Assembly (NCBI GenBank): GCA_902788755.1
Contig: CADALB010000011.1
Span: 3,059 to 67,058 of the forward strand
Direction of reading: 5' to 3'
DNA from: an uncultured Lachnospiraceae bacterium
GTDB lineage: Bacteria > Bacillota > Clostridia > Lachnospirales > Lachnospiraceae
Length of the DNA: 64,000 bases
Both the position numbers and the translations under genes were made by a program. How positions within the stretch are numbered: the stretch's first letter is position 1; each line of letters begins with the position of its first letter. Shown in pieces: positions 10,457 through 52,429 of this stretch. Under the pieces are notes generated by a model that worked only from the letters and a program-made list of their open reading frames with translations, was not told the origin of the DNA and made no database searches.

Positions 10457-11875
10457 TTATTCGCCACCGGAATCGGAATCATTGCTTGTATCCCCGGATC
10501 CACTTCCGGAGGTCTGCTCTGCTGGCGTCTCTGTAGCCTCGGGCGTCGCTTCGGGTGTCGGGGTCTCCGTAGGAGTCGGAGTAGGGGTCAGCACAGGCGT
10601 TTCGGCTGGCTCGGTCGTAGGAGTGGTTACCGGTTGTGTTGGTTCCGCTGTCACCACAGGAGTAGAAGTCGGCGCCGCTGTTGGCGCGGACGTAGGAGTC
10701 GGAGGCGGCGTAGATGTATGAACGGGCGTAGGAGTCGGTGTTGAAACTGACTCCTGTTTTTTTGTCGGTTCCGGCGTAGGAGTCGGGGTGTGAGTGGGCG
10801 TAGCGGTAGCAGTAGGCGTAGGAGTCGGCGTAGGCGTCTCCTCCATCATCAAATTCATTAATTCCTGAAGCTTTGCTTCGTCAATTCCCGATCCTTCATC
10901 CATTGTGACCTTAGTTCTATTTGGATTGGGTTTGATGTATTTAACTGTGTATTCACCGTCATCGGAAATTCCGGGAACCGGATGTTCAACGATGTAGTCA
11001 AATATGGCCTTACAACCCGAACTGCTGTAATGAAGGCCGTCACCTCCGTTATATTCCGATTTAACCTGTCCGTCGCTTCCGGTAAGTATCTCGGAAATGT
11101 CCAGATAGAATAAATGCTTATCTTTTGCTGTGTTTAACAGAAAATCATTGTATTTGACAATCCATGAGTTCTGTACTGTTTTTTTGTAGGGCCCGTTATC
11201 GTTGACGGGTCCGATGGACATAAGAACTATATTGGAATTGGGAGACAAATCCATTACATTATCGATAAGATCTTCAAACGTGCTTTTATAATGCTCTTCA
11301 CTCGGATCGTTTATTCCGTTTACACCGAGGGCAATATAAATAACAGGTGCCTGATGAGATGCAAGATAAGTTTTAAGTGTATATTCTTTTCCCGCATTAT
11401 TAACAAAAGTATTACTCTTAAATGACGGATGAGAAATACCTATCTGGGCAAGGGCAGCATCGTCATTGATGAGACCGTAATTTACCATTGCGACGGTTCT
11501 TGAGTCGCCGAGAAAAACACAGCGGTTCATATACCCGTCTCTGGTTCCTTCCTTGAGGGTAAGTACGGTTGTTTCAGCAGTACTTTCAACTTTTGTTTCG
11601 GCGGATGCAGTTTCGACTATAGTAGTTTCAACAGACTCCATGGTTCCGGAATCTTCTTCGGAGCCTTCTTCAATTGAAATATCAAGGGTACCGTCGCCCT
11701 CGGAGACATCCTTGGGAGAATTGATTTTGAGTACAATAACAACGGAAGTTGCAATAACAACTCCTGCAATGAAAACGGCGATTATTAATAATTCCTTCTT
11801 GCTGAAGCTCCTTCGAAGTTTTCTTGCAACCCTGCGAAAAAAGCTTCTAAGCGATCTTAGAATATTCATAAACAC
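10457..11875 (-). CDS. membrane-anchored SGNH/GDSL hydrolase with Pro/Thr-rich C-terminal tail
   Basis: N-terminal TM helix, GDS block VFLGDSRT, DxxH block GGDGLHYS, then about 130 aa of TPTPTP low-complexity sequence. Confidence 0.7.
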
Positions 11876-28223: not shown

Positions 28224-29393
28224 ATGTCTAGAAAAGTATTATCAGTATTACTTGCAACAGCAATGACAGCTTCTCTTCTTGTTGGATGTGGCGCTTCTGC
28301 TGCAGCACCTGCTGCAACTGAAGAAGCAGCACCTGCAGCAACCGAGGAAGCAGCACCTGCAGATGATGCAGCAGCAACTGAGGAAGCAGCTCCCGCTGCT
28401 GACGAAGCTACAGCAGGCAAGAAGGTTGGCGTAGCAATGCCTACTAAGGACCTTCAGAGATGGAACCAGGATGGTTCTAACATGCAGGAGCAGCTTGAAG
28501 CAGCAGGTTACGAAGTTGACCTTCAGTACGCTTCAAACGACGTTCAGACTCAGGTTTCTCAGATTGAGAACATGATCAACGGTGGATGTGATGTTCTTGT
28601 TATCGCTTCTATCGACGGTGAGTCACTCGGTACAGTTCTTGAGACAGCTAAGGCAGCAGAAATTCCTGTTATCGCTTATGACCGTCTTATCATGAACACA
28701 GATGCAGTTTCTTACTATGCTACATTCGATAACTACATGGTAGGTACAAAGCAGGGTCAGTACATCATTGATACACTTGATCTTGACAATGCAGAAGGAC
28801 CTTTCAACATGGAGATCACAGGTGGTGACCCCGGTGACAACAACGCTAAGTACTTCTACAATGGTGCTATGGATCTTCTTAAGCCCTACATCGAGAGCGG
28901 CAAGATCGTTGTTAAGTCAGGCCAGGTAGACTTCGAGCAGGTTGCAACAGCTTCATGGGCAACAGAGAATGCTCAGTCAAGAATGGAGAACATCCTTTCT
29001 TCTAACTACGCTGATGGCACAAACCTTGACATCGCACTTTGCTCAAACGACTCTACAGCACTTGGTGTTGAGAACGCACTTGCAGCAAACTACAAGGGTA
29101 AATATCCTATCATCACCGGTCAGGACTGTGACGTTGCAAACGTTAAGAACATGATCGATGGCAAGCAGTCAATGTCTATCTTCAAGGATACACGTACACT
29201 TGCAGCTCAGGTTGTTAAGATGGTTGGACAGATCCTTAAGGGCGAGACAGTTGATGTAAACGATACAACGACTTATGACAATGGTAAGGGGGTTGTTCCT
29301 TCATTCCTTTGCGAGCCTGTATTCGCTGATATCAACAACTACAAAGAGATTCTTATCGACAGCGGTTACTACACAGAGGCTGACCTTCAGTAA
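28224..29393 (+). CDS. sugar ABC transporter substrate-binding lipoprotein (ChvE / multiple-monosaccharide type)
   Basis: AGGGAGG RBS, lipobox LLVGC, Ala/Pro/Glu linker, then a CUT2 binding-protein domain (KVGVAMPTKDLQRWNQDG, VIAYDRLI). Codon usage looks biased toward highly expressed genes. Confidence 0.85.
   Translation: MSRKVLSVLLATAMTASLLVGCGASAAAPAATEEAAPAATEEAAPADDAAATEEAAPAADEATAGKKVGVAMPTKDLQRWNQDGSNMQEQLEAAGYEVDLQYASNDVQTQVSQIENMINGGCDVLVIASIDGESLGTVLETAKAAEIPVIAYDRLIMNTDAVSYYATFDNYMVGTKQGQYIIDTLDLDNAEGPFNMEITGGDPGDNNAKYFYNGAMDLLKPYIESGKIVVKSGQVDFEQVATASWATENAQSRMENILSSNYADGTNLDIALCSNDSTALGVENALAANYKGKYPIITGQDCDVANVKNMIDGKQSMSIFKDTRTLAAQVVKMVGQILKGETVDVNDTTTYDNGKGVVPSFLCEPVFADINNYKEILIDSGYYTEADLQ
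28303..28407 (+). repeat. in-frame 24-nt tandem repeats encoding the AAPAATEE linker
   Basis: GCAGCACCTGC(T/A)GCAAC(T/C)GA(A/G)GAA occurs twice perfectly in frame, followed by two degenerate units. Confidence 0.7.
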
Positions 29394-40397: not shown

Positions 40398-40570
40398 TGA
40401 AAAAGTATTCGCAATGTTTTTGTCTCATCTTATGGTGTTAGTATAGTTCACATAAATGTATAAAAAATGTTCCACAAATGAAAAGTTTATAAATTAAATA
40501 TGAACAAATTATGAACGTATGATTCGTAAAAGTGCATTAAATCCTATTCGTAAAATAGTGAAAAAACACA

Positions 40571-41523: not shown

Positions 41524-42405
41524 ATGGACGAAGAAAAAAAGAAATCAGCCGGATCCGGTGACGGAAGGATCCTTTCGTATATAGGCCTGGGATTAATGTT
41601 ACTGTCGTTTATTCTTGCGGTTGTAGTTACTGACTCTACAGGCAGCGATTATTTTACGGAGAACATCATTCTGACCTGTGTACTTGCTCTTGCGGTTATT
41701 GTTACTGCCGCCGGGTACCTTATGGTGGGTATTATAGTGGCCGCCGTTGCAACAGTTGTATTTGCCGGACTGAAGATTTATTCGATTACCGCACTTCAGA
41801 GCGATTTTCCCACCATATCTTTCTTGTGGATACTGCTGCCCGCAATGTGTGTGGCCGGAATTGCTTTGTATATTAAGCGGTATTCACCGCTTGTTCTTGA
41901 AAACGCTATTCTGAAAAAACAGATCGACGATCTTGTTATGATAGATCCTGTCACGGGGTTATATAATCTCAGAAGTCTGTTTATGGATTTCCAAACTCAG
42001 ATATCATATGCAGAGAGAAATGACAGCCCCATTTCTTTTATGATCTTAAGGCTCCGATATCCTGCGGAAATGAAGAAAGTTCTCAAACCTTCCCAATACG
42101 AAAAGGTAGTTAAGCAGCTGTCACTTCTTATAGTGGATACGGTCCGCTTAGAGGACAGGGTGTATTCTATTGATGAAAACGGCGGATTCGGTATAATTCT
42201 TACCTGCGACAGGGATGGTACGAAGATCGTTGAGAAAAGACTGAGGGACAAGCTTTCCGATTCGAAATGGTTTGAGGGCATTTCCGACAAGCAGATCAGA
42301 ACCGAAGTTAAGATCGGATACTTGCAGTATGACAAGACAAAATATAATCGAGATGCCAACAGCTTCAAGAGTGACGTTGAAGATGAGGTTGAATATGATA
42401 TGTAG
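41524..42405 (+). CDS. membrane protein with degenerate GGDEF domain
   Basis: GGAG 6 nt upstream of ATG 41524; the track start is TTG 41512. Four TM helices, DPVTGLYNLRS entry motif, and ENGGFGIIL in place of GGDEF. The stop TAG lies inside repeat copy 1. Confidence 0.7.
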   Translation: MDEEKKKSAGSGDGRILSYIGLGLMLLSFILAVVVTDSTGSDYFTENIILTCVLALAVIVTAAGYLMVGIIVAAVATVVFAGLKIYSITALQSDFPTISFLWILLPAMCVAGIALYIKRYSPLVLENAILKKQIDDLVMIDPVTGLYNLRSLFMDFQTQISYAERNDSPISFMILRLRYPAEMKKVLKPSQYEKVVKQLSLLIVDTVRLEDRVYSIDENGGFGIILTCDRDGTKIVEKRLRDKLSDSKWFEGISDKQIRTEVKIGYLQYDKTKYNRDANSFKSDVEDEVEYDM

Positions 42406-42493
42406 ATAGGGGGGACCGCGAAGCGGTGGGACCCTGTCTACACCGCGAGGCCCATCGCGAAGCGATTCAAAATGGCCGAGCGACCTTATTACA
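42401..42493 (+). repeat. structured GC-rich intergenic repeat, copy 1 (two hairpins)
   Basis: TGTAGATAGGGGGGACCGCGAAGCGGTGGGACCCTGTCTACA + CCGCGAGGCCCATCGCGAAGCGATTCAAAATGGCCGAGCGACC + TTATTACA. Flanked by the direct repeat ATGTAGATAGG (42400-42410 and 42493-42503). Confidence 0.8.
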
Positions 42494-42513
42494 TGTAGAT
42501 AGGAGAGACAATT

Positions 42514-43473
42514 ATGAAATATTTCATCACGGGCGGAGCCGGTTTTATCGGCTCGAATATGGCAGACAGACTGTTGTCTGAGCCGGAAAACGAAGTAGTT
42601 GTATATGACAATTTCTCCACCGGAAGGCATGAGTTCCTTGCGGAGGCGCAAAAGAGTGAAAGATTTACCCTTATAGAGGGAGACACTCTTGATCTTGCGG
42701 CGCTTACCGAAGCAATGAAGGGCTGTGAATTCGTATTTCATTTTGCGGCAAATGCCGATGTCAGGATGGGATGCGAGCACCCCAGGAAGGATCTTGAGCA
42801 GAACACCATTGCCACATATAACGTTCTTGAGGCGATGAGGGCAAACGGTATTAAGAGGATAGGCTTTTCTTCAACGGGATCGGTATACGGAGAGGCTGAG
42901 GTCATTCCGACTCCGGAAAATGCTCCGTTCCCTATACAGACATCTTTGTACGGCGCATCAAAGCTTGCATGCGAGGGCCTGCTTGCCGCTTATGCAGAAG
43001 GCTTCGGATACACGGCATATATTTTCAGATTTGTTTCAATACTCGGAGAGCGCTACACGCACGGTCATGTGTTTGATTTTTGTAAAAAGCTTTCCGACGA
43101 TCCGACGAAGCTCCACATCCTCGGAGACGGACACCAGAAAAAATCATACCTTTATGTCAAGGACTGCATGGAGGCTATCCTTACGGTTATAAAGAATGCG
43201 AAAGATAAGGTTAATATATATAATCTCGGAACGGACGAATACGTAGAGGTAAATGACTCGGTAAGATTTATATGTGGAAAACTCGGCGTAACACCGGAGT
43301 TTACATATGAAGGCGGGGAGCGTGGATGGATAGGTGATAATCCATTCATATATCTTGATACGTCAAAGGTAAGGGCACTTGGCTGGAAGCCGAAAGCAAC
43401 CATCGAAGAGGGAGTTATCAAAACGGTGGAATATCTGCAGGCTAACCCGTGGGTGTTTGCTGCAAGGGATTAG
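42514..43473 (+). CDS. NAD-dependent epimerase/dehydratase (extended SDR), candidate nucleotide-heptose epimerase
   Basis: GGAGFIGS Rossmann motif and YGASK catalytic motif. First gene of the heptose module; substrate is inferred from context only. Confidence 0.8.
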   Translation: MKYFITGGAGFIGSNMADRLLSEPENEVVVYDNFSTGRHEFLAEAQKSERFTLIEGDTLDLAALTEAMKGCEFVFHFAANADVRMGCEHPRKDLEQNTIATYNVLEAMRANGIKRIGFSSTGSVYGEAEVIPTPENAPFPIQTSLYGASKLACEGLLAAYAEGFGYTAYIFRFVSILGERYTHGHVFDFCKKLSDDPTKLHILGDGHQKKSYLYVKDCMEAILTVIKNAKDKVNIYNLGTDEYVEVNDSVRFICGKLGVTPEFTYEGGERGWIGDNPFIYLDTSKVRALGWKPKATIEEGVIKTVEYLQANPWVFAARD

Positions 43474-45860: not shown

Positions 45861-46418
45861 ATGACAAAAGACTACATTAAGCAATACCTTGAGGAAACCA
45901 TGCAGATAGCACAGACGGTATCGCAGGAAGAGATCGAAAAGGGTATTGCGATCCTTCGTGAAACGAAGAAGAACGAAGGAAGACTGTTTATTCTCGGAGT
46001 CGGCGGAAGCGCGGCAAATGCTTCGCATGCGGTCAATGATTTCAGGAAGATCGGCGGGATTGAGACATATGCGCCTACCGACAATGTATCGGAACTGACG
46101 GCAAGAACCAATGACGAAGGCTGGGAAACAACCTTTACGGAGTGGCTGAGGTGCAGCCATTTGAATGGGAAGGATTCCGTTATGGTATTCTCGGTCGGCG
46201 GCGGAAGCGAGACAACATCACTTAATATTGTAAATGCGCTTAAGCTTGCCAAGGAACGGGGCTCAAAAATCATTTCCATAGTTTCGAGAAACGGCGGATA
46301 TTCAAAACAGGTCAGCGATGCCTGTGTTTTGATACCTGTTGTGGATGATAAAAGGATAACTCCTCATGCAGAAGGGTGGCAGGGAGTTGTATGGCATCTG
46401 ATGGTAAACGCATTGTAG
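45861..46418 (+). CDS. gmhA: SIS-domain phosphoheptose isomerase
   Basis: GGAGGG RBS and ILGVGGSAANASHAVNDF SIS motif; 185 aa. The stop TAG lies inside repeat copy 2. Confidence 0.8.
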   Translation: MTKDYIKQYLEETMQIAQTVSQEEIEKGIAILRETKKNEGRLFILGVGGSAANASHAVNDFRKIGGIETYAPTDNVSELTARTNDEGWETTFTEWLRCSHLNGKDSVMVFSVGGGSETTSLNIVNALKLAKERGSKIISIVSRNGGYSKQVSDACVLIPVVDDKRITPHAEGWQGVVWHLMVNAL

Positions 46419-46505
46419 ATAGGAGGGACCCGCCGAAGGTGGGAGGAACCTGTCTACACCGCGAGGCCCTTTCGACGAAGTCGAATATTAAATGGCCGAG
46501 CGACC
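46414..46505 (+). repeat. structured GC-rich intergenic repeat, copy 2
   Basis: TGTAGATAGGAGGGACCCGCCGAAGGTGGGAGGAACCTGTCTACA + CCGCGAGGCCCTTTCGACGAAGTCGAATATTAAATGGCCGAGCGACC. Same orientation as copy 1. Confidence 0.8.
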
Positions 46506-47443: not shown

Positions 47444-47989
47444 ATGGCAGACGTTAAGAAACCTACTGTAACAGTTAAAAAGGCTGTTGTTACGGAGCCC
47501 GAAAAGGCGAAAGAGGCTATCAAGGCAGCTGTAGCTGAGCAGAAAGCAGCAGCACCCGCTAAGAAGGCAGCACCTGCAAAGAAGGCACCCGCAAAGAAAG
47601 CAGCACCTGCAAAGAAGGCAGCACCTGCAAAGAAGGCAGCACCTGCAAAGAAGGCAGCACCCGCTAAGAAGGCAGCAGCACCCGCTAAGAAGGCAGCACC
47701 TGCTAAAAAGGCAGCACCCGCTAAGAAGGCACCTGCAAAGAAGGCAGCAAAGAAGACAGTTGTTAAGACAAATGCAGTATTTGCACTTAACGATACAAAG
47801 AATGTATCAGCAGATGCACTCTTCAAACAGTATCTTAAGACAGCAAAGGATCGTGCTAAATATGATCTCGGAATCAAGGTTGCTGACATCAAGAGCATAG
47901 ATATCTATGTAAATGTTGCTGAGCAGAAGGTTTACAGCGTTATTAACGGTGAAGTCAACGATTCATTTGATATGTACTTCGATTTCTGA
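47444..47989 (+). CDS. histone H1-like Lys/Ala/Pro-repeat protein with globular C-terminal domain
   Basis: AAGGAG RBS. About 11 PAKKA(A) repeats follow the N-terminus, then an 80-aa non-repetitive domain (VFALNDTKNVSADALFKQYL...). The gene sits between a strong promoter and a strong terminator. Confidence 0.75.
   Translation: MADVKKPTVTVKKAVVTEPEKAKEAIKAAVAEQKAAAPAKKAAPAKKAPAKKAAPAKKAAPAKKAAPAKKAAPAKKAAAPAKKAAPAKKAAPAKKAPAKKAAKKTVVKTNAVFALNDTKNVSADALFKQYLKTAKDRAKYDLGIKVADIKSIDIYVNVAEQKVYSVINGEVNDSFDMYFDF
47546..47754 (+). repeat. in-frame 15/18-nt tandem repeats (PAKKA / PAKKAA units)
   Basis: Repeated GCACC(T/C)GC(A/T)AAGAAGGCA(GCA) units read directly from the sequence. Confidence 0.85.
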
Positions 47990-51435: not shown

Positions 51436-52089
51436 TTGGAAGTTGATTTTAACAGCAAAGAGCAGGATATTACCTGGGAGGAGATTATTCTTCTGCATAA
51501 TTCCGCGCTCAAAGAGATAGGAACAAAACTGGAAATACTCAATGATGAGTTCCAGCATATTCATCAGTATAATCCGATAGAACACATCAAATCGAGAATA
51601 AAATCTCCGGAGTCCATAGTCAGAAAGCTGAAGAAAAAGGGTTACGATGTAACCCTTGAAAACATGGTCAAATACGTGAACGACATTGCGGGCATCCGGA
51701 TCATATGTTCATTTACTTCGGATATATACAGAATAGCCAATATGCTTCGCAAGCAGAATGATATCAAGGTACTCTCGACGAAGGACTACATTGAGTCTCC
51801 GAAGGAGAGCGGGTATAAAAGCTACCACATGCTCGTAAGTATTCCGATATACCTGTCGGATTCGGTTGTTGATACCAAAGTTGAGATTCAGATCAGAACT
51901 ATCGCAATGGATTTCTGGGCAAGTCTGGAGCACAAGATGAACTACAAGTTCGAGAGTGACGCACCGGAAGAGATCAAGAAGGAACTGTTTGAATGCGCGA
52001 TAATGGTTGAGCAGCTTGATGACAGGATGCTTATTATCAACGATAAGATACAGAGGGCAAAGAAGGAAGAAGCTAAGTGGATTATGTAG
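51436..52089 (+). CDS. small alarmone synthetase (RelQ/YwaC-like GTP pyrophosphokinase)
   Basis: TTG start after GGGGG. NPIEHIKSRIKSPESIVRKL, YKSYHMLV and EIQIRTIAMDFWASLEHK synthetase motifs. The stop TAG lies at the edge of repeat copy 3. Confidence 0.85.
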   Translation: MEVDFNSKEQDITWEEIILLHNSALKEIGTKLEILNDEFQHIHQYNPIEHIKSRIKSPESIVRKLKKKGYDVTLENMVKYVNDIAGIRIICSFTSDIYRIANMLRKQNDIKVLSTKDYIESPKESGYKSYHMLVSIPIYLSDSVVDTKVEIQIRTIAMDFWASLEHKMNYKFESDAPEEIKKELFECAIMVEQLDDRMLIINDKIQRAKKEEAKWIM

Positions 52090-52197
52090 ATAGGAGGGAT
52101 TAGCTATAAGGAGACTCGCACATTGGAATCGCCTACGGCGATGGGTGCTCGTCGTGTAGACAGGTTCCTCCCGCTTTGCGGGCCCCTCCTATCTACA
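52085..52197 (-). repeat. structured GC-rich intergenic repeat, copy 3 (inverted orientation) with extra terminal inverted repeat
   Basis: The reverse complement of 52110-52197 reads TGTAGATAGGAGGGGCCCGCAAAGCGGGAGGAACCTGTCTACA + CGACGAGCACCCATCGCCGTAGGCGATTCCAATGTGCGAGTCTCC. The plus-strand TGTAGATAGGAGGG at 52085-52098 pairs perfectly with 52184-52197. Confidence 0.75.
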
Positions 52198-52207
52198 TAT
52201 GAGGAGT

Positions 52208-52234
52208 GGCCAGGTGGATGAGAGTCACCTGGCC
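52208..52234. other. perfect 9-bp stem-loop downstream of repeat copy 3
   Basis: GGCCAGGTG-GATGAGAGT-CACCTGGCC. No T tract follows on either strand. Confidence 0.4.
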
Positions 52235-52429
52235 AATATTATGAAAAAATACATCTGGTTGTTTGGAGAATGTTCTCCAATGGAGATATATAGAATATAT
52301 CATTTACATGTGAATAAATTATGAACAATGTATGAATATATAGTAAATGTTTCCAAAGGACATAAAAATACAGACTAAATTATTGTATAAAATGCACAAT
52401 AATTAGTGCGGACGAATATCATGCAAATA

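Follow-up and report, generated by a model that had tools for sequence, protein, structure and literature searches.

A two-hairpin interspersed repeat family at gene ends of uncultured Lachnospiraceae, with a fold maintained by compensatory base changes

Small structured repeats lying between bacterial genes have been described from several lineages. The repetitive extragenic palindromes (REPs) and the bacterial interspersed mosaic elements (BIMEs), known mainly from Proteobacteria, protect upstream mRNA at the RNA level and interfere with termination when located near a stop codon; Liang and Deutscher reportedly found in 2015 that REPs close to stop codons protect the upstream mRNA or influence termination. 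Among the Firmicutes, the bcr1-type repeats of the Bacillus cereus group are modular, RNA-structured, co-transcribed with adjacent genes, restricted to a narrow lineage and devoid of a transposase of their own. The same traits are shared by BOX of Streptococcus pneumoniae, and the pneumococcal BOX, RUP and SPRITE repeats, which are structured and co-transcribed, were judged to be parasitic (PMC3049150). When the mycobacterial interspersed repetitive unit (MIRU) inserts, a small open reading frame (ORF) becomes coupled to the adjacent gene and expression is hardly affected (PMC12548453; PMC3184786). In this study, we analysed a 64,000-nt stretch of DNA (hereafter, the window) from an uncultured Lachnospiraceae bacterium (assembly GCA_902788755.1, contig CADALB010000011.1, positions 3,059 to 67,058), in which a preliminary description had noted a GC-rich module present three times and composed of two hairpins. 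It is close to certain that the modules are interspersed modular repeat units of approximately 95 nt restricted to a rumen-type Lachnospiraceae lineage. The family is a hitherto undescribed member of the small structured interspersed bacterial repeats, not a new kind of system, and its less usual trait is the combination of stop-codon phasing with a terminal partial repeat acting as a ribosome-binding site.

Exactly the three modules noted in advance, at 42401-42485 (+), 46414-46505 (+) and 52110-52197 (-), were recovered by a covariance model built from related copies (E-values between 1e-20 and 1e-25). The model detected no further full copy in the 64 kb window. Both hairpins, H1 and H2, folded on the element strand in all three copies, and the minimum free energies of copies 1, 2 and 3 were -41.7, -41.3 and -39.5 kcal/mol, respectively. 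The corresponding z-scores were -4.3, -5.1 and -4.0, with none of 200 dinucleotide shuffles being equally stable, and the reverse complements gave weaker folds (z of -2.3 to -3.1). Reading the three copies bore out the proposed stems, the T-G pair, the tandem GA/GA mismatch and the triloops, as well as the compensated differences in the outer stem of H2 (CGC..GGCC versus GAC..GCAC) and the lack of a U tract 3' of any window copy.

The 5' end of the unit is formed by arm A, (A)TGTAGATAGG; two of its reading frames contain a TAG, and its sequence leads into AGGAGG. The base 5' of the element showed a weak preference, with A at -1 in 46 of 64 copies and at -3 in 38 of 64. Inside H1, a purine-rich internal loop (AGGGR opposite ARGAA or, in a second subtype, GGGRA opposite UGGGA) is followed by an inner stem of 5-6 GC pairs closed by a triloop, commonly C(GNA)G, and the hairpin is completed by arm A* (CCTGTCTACA), which pairs with arm A. 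After one unpaired C, H2 opens with a stem of 3 bp, which a tandem G-A/A-G mismatch separates from one of 4 bp; 0-3 unpaired bases then lead to an inner stem of 5-7 bp capped by a triloop, and the internal loop on the 3' side ends in AAU. Triloops accounted for 97 of the 118 hairpin loops, 83 of them being C(GNA)G. Downstream of H2 come an NCC tail, a U/A-rich linker TTRTTAA (T at position +1 in 49 of 64 copies and at +2 in 44) and, in roughly one third of the copies, a partial direct repeat of arm A, designated A2. Given this succession of H2, NCC and TTRTTAA with no run of T, an intrinsic terminator was rejected.

Compensatory changes maintain the two-hairpin fold. Selection on the structure of a dispersed repeat family had been suggested from the three window copies, and this was strongly supported by the many copies found in relatives and by covariation far exceeding that of both controls. 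None of the results that the preliminary description had named as speaking against it was obtained. In a model-based alignment of 62 distinct copies, standard pairs filled 98.3% of the cells versus 80.7 +/- 0.7% in shuffles, and both sides had changed at 15 of the 24 pairs (238 cells), these counts referring to sequences, not events, in an alignment fitted to the structure; none of 500 shuffles reached any of the five measures. Since subfamilies have spread, single changes are counted many times in these figures. When the 3' partners were slid by 1-3 columns, pairing amounted to only 30-44%. The outer 3-bp stem of H2 took the forms CGC/GCG, GTG/CAC, GAC/GTC, GCG/CGC and CGG/CCG, its 4-bp stem appeared in at least ten forms, and no broken pair was observed in the H2 outer stem among the first 25 copies. 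The arm stem also showed compensated variants, namely TGGAG/CTCCA, TGCAG/CTGCA, TGAAG/CTTCA, TGTAGCAAGG/CCTTGCTGCA and TGTAGTAAGG/CCTTACTATA, in copies found without a fixed arm sequence. At pair 3-73 (n = 62), UA occurred 42 times, CG nine times, UG seven times, AU three times and GC once. The T-G pair of the arm was retained in 58 copies and replaced by A-U in three, and no T-A was found at this position among the metagenome pattern matches, though the pattern permitted it. On the element strand, the remaining non-Watson-Crick pairs comprised 15 G-T versus 5 A-C. Orthologous elements were about as conserved as the flanking coding DNA and more so in several pairs, with identities of 0.99 for the element versus 0.89/0.91 for the flanks, 0.98 versus 0.84/0.88, and 1.00 versus 0.87/0.90.

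The extent of the family was assessed by pattern and model searches. The exact pattern TGTAGATAGG-N15-35-CCTGTCTACAC, applied to 185,579 species genomes, gave 24 loci, all within eight metagenome-assembled genomes (MAGs) of Lachnospiraceae, most of which are named from rumen or ruminant-gut samples. A looser pattern applied to metagenomes gave 36 loci, 35 of which contained a strong match to the model. Strong model matches numbered 71, including 62 distinct ones; with the copies from syntenic loci the total rose to 82, which fell into approximately 40 genomic sites upon clustering of their flanks. Without exception, the copies came from Lachnospiraceae assemblies of rumen type. Extrapolation from MAG UBA3762, with six exact-pattern copies and two found by the model, and from the window, with three copies per 64 kb, gives a copy number that appears to be in the low tens per genome. 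Viral contigs contained no match to the exact two-arm pattern; the 76 matches to a looser 14-base pattern therein were all rejected by the model (0 in 722 kb), so that they are regarded as chance matches and serve as a negative control of specificity. Blastn against plasmid and phage collections returned no match.

The preliminary description had matched the element to no named RNA family. No Rfam family reached its threshold in gathering-level or permissive scans, the former returning nothing in the window, and searches of the literature and of Rfam found no description of such repeats in Lachnospiraceae. At permissive E-values, a single weak match to GA-cis (RF02987) was obtained in H2 of copy 2 (14.7 bits, against a gathering score of 34.7), which was absent from copies 1 and 3 and from 15 other copies. 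The GA-cis consensus resembles this H2 in its GA-flanked helix, CGAAG loop, AAU loop end and ACCU-like tail, but the score is sub-threshold and H1 has no counterpart in GA-cis. A permissive Rfam scan of 14 loci matched neighbouring known RNAs, not the element. A clear Clostridiales-1 RNA (RF01699, 70.9 bits; locus L037, 645-761) lies 1.7 kb from a repeat unit, is unrelated to it and confirms a Clostridia-type host.

Most units are located right at the end of a gene and in sense with it, and this gene usually stops at the first TAG of arm A. Over 67 distinct copies, with upstream ORFs of at least 100 codons considered, 49 were sense and six antisense to the upstream ORF, 12 had no assignable ORF, and 33 lay between two ORFs of the same strand. 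The last base of the upstream stop codon coincided with element position 5 (TAG of TGTAG) in 23 copies and with position 9 (the second TAG) in two; for 11 copies it lay between -4 and +3, and for one at +23. Counted by hand with orthologous sites taken once, the three frames were used at approximately 14, 3 and 1 sites (binomial estimate against equal use, p ~1.5e-4). The GGDEF orthologues upstream of copy 1 end in YD followed by M, I, L or V; filled alleles read GAT ATG TAG, with the TG-TAG contributed by the arm, and empty ones read GAT ATA TAG or GAC GTC TGA. The SIS gene upstream of copy 2 is three codons shorter than an orthologue at an empty site. No ORF running through the unit was seen, and the next gene on the same strand started within 5-50 nt downstream of most copies. 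In the antisense copies at L023 and L017, the 3' end abuts the stop codon of the opposite-strand gene.

According to the preliminary description, the TAG stop of the upstream gene lay in the arm of every copy. This applied to the plus-strand copies 1 and 2, whose upstream ORFs end at 42405 and 46418, and failed for copy 3. This copy is on the minus strand and both of its neighbouring genes are on the plus strand, so that it is antisense to them; the TAG at 52087 belongs to a third, inverted arm copy (52085-52094, plus strand) that lies 15 nt past the 3' end of copy 3 and outside its H1. The solo arm and 52184-52198 make up a perfect 15-nt inverted repeat. The interval formerly given for copy 1, ending at 42503, takes in a second direct arm copy (42494-42503), which bears the ribosome-binding site of the downstream epimerase gene and had gone undescribed.

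Such an A2, a direct repeat of the copy's own 5' end, was found in approximately 20 of the 67 copies. It always started 6-8 nt past the model end, was never located upstream, was 12-24 nt long, and matched the arm variant of its own copy (TGAAG with TGAAG, TGGAG with TGGAG, GGTAGGAAGG with GGTAGGAAGG). Its AGGAGG was usually followed within 5-12 nt by the ATG of the next gene, indicating that A2 serves as the ribosome-binding site of that gene. Copies also adjoined genes for non-coding RNAs, namely tRNA, signal recognition particle (SRP) RNA and an apparent RNase P RNA, and others lay between rplJ and rplL.

Several of these placements are worth recording individually. Units abutted stable-RNA genes at L026 (290-389), L060 (1127-1226), L030 (865-935) and L051 (76-161), lying 18-27 nt after SRP RNA genes or 3 nt from tRNA genes. 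By eye, a degenerate three-unit array from ~3360 of L028 stood directly upstream of the apparent 5' end of an RNase P RNA (GAGGAAAGTCCGGGC). The ribosomal protein L10 leader (RF00557) was detected at 1469-1709 of L056 and 11-147 of L041; a unit at 1507-1596 of L056 lies inside the leader match, and a second unit separates rplJ and rplL in both loci.

Units occurred singly, as tandem arrays and as deletion mosaics, and they varied between and within species. Head-to-tail direct arrays were found at L003, L047, L057 and L068, taking the form unit-unit-partial arm at L003, L057 and L068, and deletion derivatives were found at L061, L075 and L015; orthologous sites carried 1, 2 and 2.5 copies. Paralogues within one genome were up to 94% identical. 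In the MAG of L006, two copies 4 kb apart had an identical H2 and H1 of different subtypes, which points to gene conversion.

The site of copy 1 (junction 1, GGDEF/epimerase) was sampled through GGDEF homologues in a manner blind to the element. Filled forms, found in species whose GGDEF protein was 71-88% identical to that of the window, included a full unit, 2.5 tandem units, a unit that had lost the inner stem of H1, one with a decayed H2 and a 61-nt deletion derivative. No unit was present at the junction in one species with 79% identity, nor in some strains of the same species as the window, which is represented by more than 200 assemblies. One such strain, L063, was 99.7% identical to the window over 7.3 kb of the left flank, and comparison across 42250-43000 revealed a tract of raised divergence at the junction (8 mismatches over the last 160 nt, 13 over the following 250 nt, and 18 over 500 nt), the level elsewhere being approximately 1 per 250 nt. 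At the site of copy 3 (junction 3, behind the alarmone synthetase gene), three alleles were present among eight strains with an identical synthetase protein: the window type, composed of the solo arm and a whole inverted GAC-subfamily unit; a unit in forward orientation that belongs to the GTG subfamily and has an extended H1; and the latter lacking 54 nt between two GCGAAGCA loops. In the nearest relatives (90-94% protein identity), the junction was near-empty, reading TGGAAGATAGAT TAA AAAG CCTTATAA immediately before ATGAGG. It holds arm-like and linker-like sequence, with the ORF ending within the arm-like part, and could be a decayed remnant or a preferred target. Empty junctions were only 13-30 nt long, and as they already hold arm-like sequence, no insertion point could be defined from filled and empty pairs.

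Taking these results together, we favour, at about an even chance of being right, a duplicative DNA repeat in the manner of REP/BIME, BOX or MIRU, which would be transcribed along with its host operon and be tolerable between genes. The descriptive part of this composite reading is close to certain, and we infer from it the role at the RNA level and the selfish-but-harmless logic. The unit would be duplicated at the DNA level and, judging from its position and orientation, transcribed together with the operon that hosts it. The stop codon at its front and the ribosome-binding site at its rear may make insertion between tightly packed genes tolerable; that is, the unit would survive between packed cistrons because its own stop codon and ribosome-binding site come along. 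Once transcribed, the end of the upstream cistron would carry a hairpin block with a stability of about -40 kcal/mol, which probably shields the upstream mRNA from 3'-to-5' exonuclease decay, may affect translation termination, or both. Selection on the hairpins, gene conversion between copies, or both may keep the copies intact. A role in the transcript is favoured by the predominant sense orientation and by the phasing on stop codons, and the mobility-type polymorphism and C(GNA)G triloops fit a DNA element.

Several observations weigh against this reading or part of it. The sense bias could in part mirror replication-strand bias, because the genes of Firmicutes are mostly co-oriented with replication. 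Conservation of the arms is in part an effect of collection, since most copies were found by a pattern that fixes the arms. Some copies decay: two changes in L064, within the species, break pairs, and L066, L067 and L069 are incomplete. The copies in antisense orientation (copy 3 of the window, L023 and L017) are no less intact than sense ones, at 92-102 bits, which fits selection on the element's own strand better than selection on the mRNA. The divergence tract at junction 1 indicates allele exchange by homologous recombination and does not prove transposition; recombination import carried or removed the repeat, and the empty allele was thus rejected as evidence of a fresh insertion. Neither a transposase nor another trans-acting gene was identified: no recurrent transposase-like ORF was seen near the copies, and tblastn for Y1 transposases over 504 kb around the copies gave nothing at E < 0.05, in a weak screen with IS200/IS608 TnpA and E. 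coli RAYT (REP-associated tyrosine transposase) queries. The only protein families found to recur beside copies at unrelated sites were paralogous histidine kinases and LacI-type regulators. In the loci examined, a search for a parent insertion sequence having the arms as its distant ends yielded only pairs from separate copies.

The described repeat systems resemble this family to different degrees. Like REPs and BIMEs, the units are short, GC-rich, imperfect hairpins located outside genes at gene ends, which form mosaics and tandem clusters, change in a compensatory manner, vary within species and, as far as position and orientation tell, are transcribed within operons. Unlike the 35-nt REP palindrome, however, the present unit consists of two distinct hairpins spanning ~95 nt, and it forms direct arrays and appears to be present in tens of copies, whereas REPs occur in the hundreds as inverted doublets or in alternating orientation. 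The preliminary description had likened the GTAG at the foot of H1 to the tetranucleotide recognised by RAYT proteins, an analogy that was not supported: REPs have an invariant GTAG/CTAC at the foot, while here the motif is inside a stem and its T varies with compensation (GTAG, GCAG, GAAG, GGAG), the arrays are direct, and the copies apparently number in the low tens. In addition, the weak screen detected no RAYT, the element supplies a stop codon and a ribosome-binding site, and the host belongs to the Lachnospiraceae rather than the Proteobacteria.

With MIRU, the family shares the intercistronic position in operons, the gene-sense orientation, ends that overlap the neighbouring stop and start, a variable tandem number, what appear to be a few dozen genomic sites, and an apparent design for sparing neighbours (PMC12548453, PMC3184786). 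The small ORF of MIRU is translationally coupled to the next gene, whereas the present unit has stops in two frames and no through-ORF; moreover, it is a covarying double hairpin of a different phylum with no sequence similarity to MIRU. With BOX and bcr1 it has a modular make-up, a strong RNA structure and a narrow lineage in common. The family differs from them in sequence, module layout and size, and neither stop-codon phasing nor a partial repeat serving as ribosome-binding site has been reported for those repeats.

A possible, though clearly less probable, alternative is that the unit is an element of single-stranded DNA, of the REP/REPIN type or of the type of the palindrome-associated transposable elements (PATEs) of IS200/IS605, with the hairpins being ends recognised by a Y1 (HUH) transposase encoded elsewhere in the genome and with the RNA effects being incidental. 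H1 and H2 do have similar inner stems and loops (GC stems of 5-6 bp, C(GNA)G), and the C(GNA)G motif, which closes the majority of all loops, is said by Hirao and colleagues to form unusually stable DNA mini-hairpins. The retained T-G pair and the excess of G-T over A-C are strand-specific features; terminal inverted repeats spanning the unit and a consistent target duplication are absent; two subfamilies occupy junction 3 in opposite orientations; antisense copies are intact; and A frequently precedes the element. As in PATEs, the unit is small and non-autonomous, has a hairpin near each end and is strand-specific, with no terminal inverted repeats or target duplication, the only flanking duplication being A2, itself a partial copy of the element. 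Against this, the two hairpins are dissimilar, H1 with its 10-bp arm stem and purine loop being unlike the tandem-GA helix of H2, and no conserved 4-5 nt target or cleavage motif could be defined. The weak 504 kb screen for Y1/RAYT genes, TnpA included, was negative, transposase-like ORFs did not recur near copies, GTAG is variable, and the copy number is apparently in the low tens. Direct tandem arrays with a trailing partial arm, instead of inverted doublets, are atypical of such elements, and an in-phase stop codon and an A2 ribosome-binding site are foreign to them.

We also consider, as an improbable account, a self-guided homing repeat. A* would be complementary to a natural stop codon followed by a Shine-Dalgarno sequence (TAG-ATAGGAGG-like), and this pairing would direct integration, the target becoming the 5' arm of H1 and being regenerated downstream as A2. 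Homing of this kind would explain the in-phase stop codons, the joint variation of A, A* and A2, the arm-like empty alleles (ATAGATAGGAGAG at junction 1 and TGGAAGATAGAT at junction 3), and the presence of different subfamilies at one site. If true, the family would be a mobile element that homes on operon junctions by means of a 10-nt guide and disrupts neither gene.

We hold a regulatory RNA switch to be rather doubtful. Here A* would pair either with arm A, containing the stop codon of gene 1, or with A2, containing the ribosome-binding site of gene 2, so that termination of translation on gene 1 would reset translation of gene 2, as coupling or anti-coupling. The stop codon indeed occupies a fixed position within arm A, A2 repeats its own arm variant and is thereby the complement of A* in L044, L016, L057, L068 and L069, and with the first 16 nt blocked to mimic a terminating ribosome, the minimum-free-energy structure predicted for most of 10 loci contained an A*-A2 helix enclosing H2. 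Nevertheless, A2 is present in only ~30% of the copies, its A*-pairing 5' half decays freely (TATAG, CGTAG, TGCGG) while the ribosome-binding part is kept, and the predicted accessibility of the ribosome-binding site shifts little and in inconsistent directions. Tandem duplication and contraction explain the A/A2 match equally well, and the flanking genes are unrelated, copies even adjoining tRNA, SRP RNA and RNase P RNA genes.

Least likely of all is a miniature inverted-repeat element moved by a DDE transposase, with TGTAG...CTACA arms (TG...CA termini) as inverted ends and TA as target: the arms A and A* are 10-11 nt inverted repeats that start with TG and end with CA, the bases preceding the element are often TA, and the window allele of junction 3 is bracketed by the perfect 15-nt inverted repeat with TA on both sides, but both arms lie in the 5' half of the unit and bracket only H1, leaving H2 and the linker outside, the inverted outer arm exists at one site only, no consistent target duplication is present, no parent insertion sequence with TGTAGATAGG-type ends was found in the loci examined or in the plasmid or phage collections, and the extensive covariation of H2 is unexpected for plain transposase-binding ends.

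The features of the three window copies are summarized in Table 1. The genes that flank them are functionally unrelated: copy 1 has a GGDEF gene on one side and an NAD-dependent epimerase gene on the other, copy 2 separates a SIS-domain gene from a transaldolase gene, and copy 3, a member of the GAC/GTC subfamily, lies between a gene for a small alarmone synthetase of the RelA/SpoT type and one for a 325-aa protein with no assigned function.

Table 1. Positions of the repeat units and associated features in the window.
Feature	Position	Strand	Description
Copy 1, hairpin H1	42401..42442	+	Arm A TGTAGATAGG 42401-42410; arm A* CCTGTCTACA 42433-42442
Copy 1, H1 interior	42401..42442	+	Purine-rich internal loop, then inner stem ACCGC-GAA-GCGGT
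Stop TAG of GGDEF gene	42403-42405	+	Inside arm A of copy 1
Copy 1, hairpin H2, 5' side	42444..42485	+	CGC / tandem GA / GGCC, inner stem ATCGC-GAA-GCGAT
Copy 1, hairpin H2, 3' side	42444..42485	+	Loop ending in AAT, GGCC / GA / GCG, ACC tail
Copy 1, linker and A2	42486..42513	+	Linker TTATTACA and partial direct repeat of arm A (A2)
Copy 1, A2	42494-42509	+	TGTAGATAGGAGAGAC; Shine-Dalgarno sequence of epimerase gene, ATG at 42514
Copy 2	46414..46505	+	H1 46414-46458, H2 46460-46502, tail ACC
Stop TAG of SIS-domain gene	46416-46418	+	In copy 2
Copy 2, 3' side		+	A2 absent; native ribosome-binding site of transaldolase gene comes next
Copy 3	52110..52197	-	H1 52197-52155, H2 52153-52113, tail TCC 52112-52110
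Solo arm A	52084-52098 (feature 52084..52109)	+	ATGTAGATAGGAGGG, then inverted linker of copy 3
Stop TAG of small alarmone synthetase gene	52087-52089	+	Within solo arm A

Other features of the window were recorded alongside the repeat. Just 3' of junction 3, a hairpin at 52207-52235 (GGCCAGGTG-GATGAGAGT-CACCTGGCC) was identical in the window, L061 and L070-L079, including the more distant L078 and L079, despite differing neighbouring sequence; the absence of a U tract sets it apart from a standard terminator. Just before it, the sequence ATGAGGAGTGGCC is reminiscent of arm A in shortened form. A TGAAYA hexamer occurs as direct repeats with 11 nt spacing at 40497-40516 (ATGAACAAATTATGAAC) and 52308-52337 (GTGAATAAATTATGAACAATGTATGAAT); the former site precedes a GNAT acetyltransferase gene (40571), the latter the operon (52492) that encodes the 325-aa protein and a LysM-G5-M23 peptidase. 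The motif is kept in the relatives L078 and L079 (TTATGAACAAATTGTGAACAAAATATGAAT) and resembles the operator of a response regulator that recognises direct repeats. At 47444-47989, within a DUF6465 gene, 18-nt repeats encoding (A)APAKK form a long series, rich in Lys, Ala and Pro like histone H1, and a second repeat tract, rich in Ala, Pro and Glu, is located at 28304-28418. An irregular periodic repeat of GTAGGAGTCGG-like units with spacings of 12-81 nt, at 10520-10837, probably belongs to a coding region.

The results provide a well-supported structured repeat family for uncultured rumen Lachnospiraceae, for which literature and database searches turned up none described. They also advise caution in searches for non-coding RNAs, given that the source of the very strong covariation was here a dispersed repeat instead of a classical regulatory RNA. 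The combination of REP-like hairpins with MIRU-like operon compatibility may offer a template for inserting structured modules between cistrons, and the variation in copy number and in presence or absence provides ready strain markers. Finally, the element supplies the last codon and stop of the upstream gene and sometimes the ribosome-binding site of the next, and it therefore matters for gene annotation and for the reading of operons in MAGs of these bacteria.

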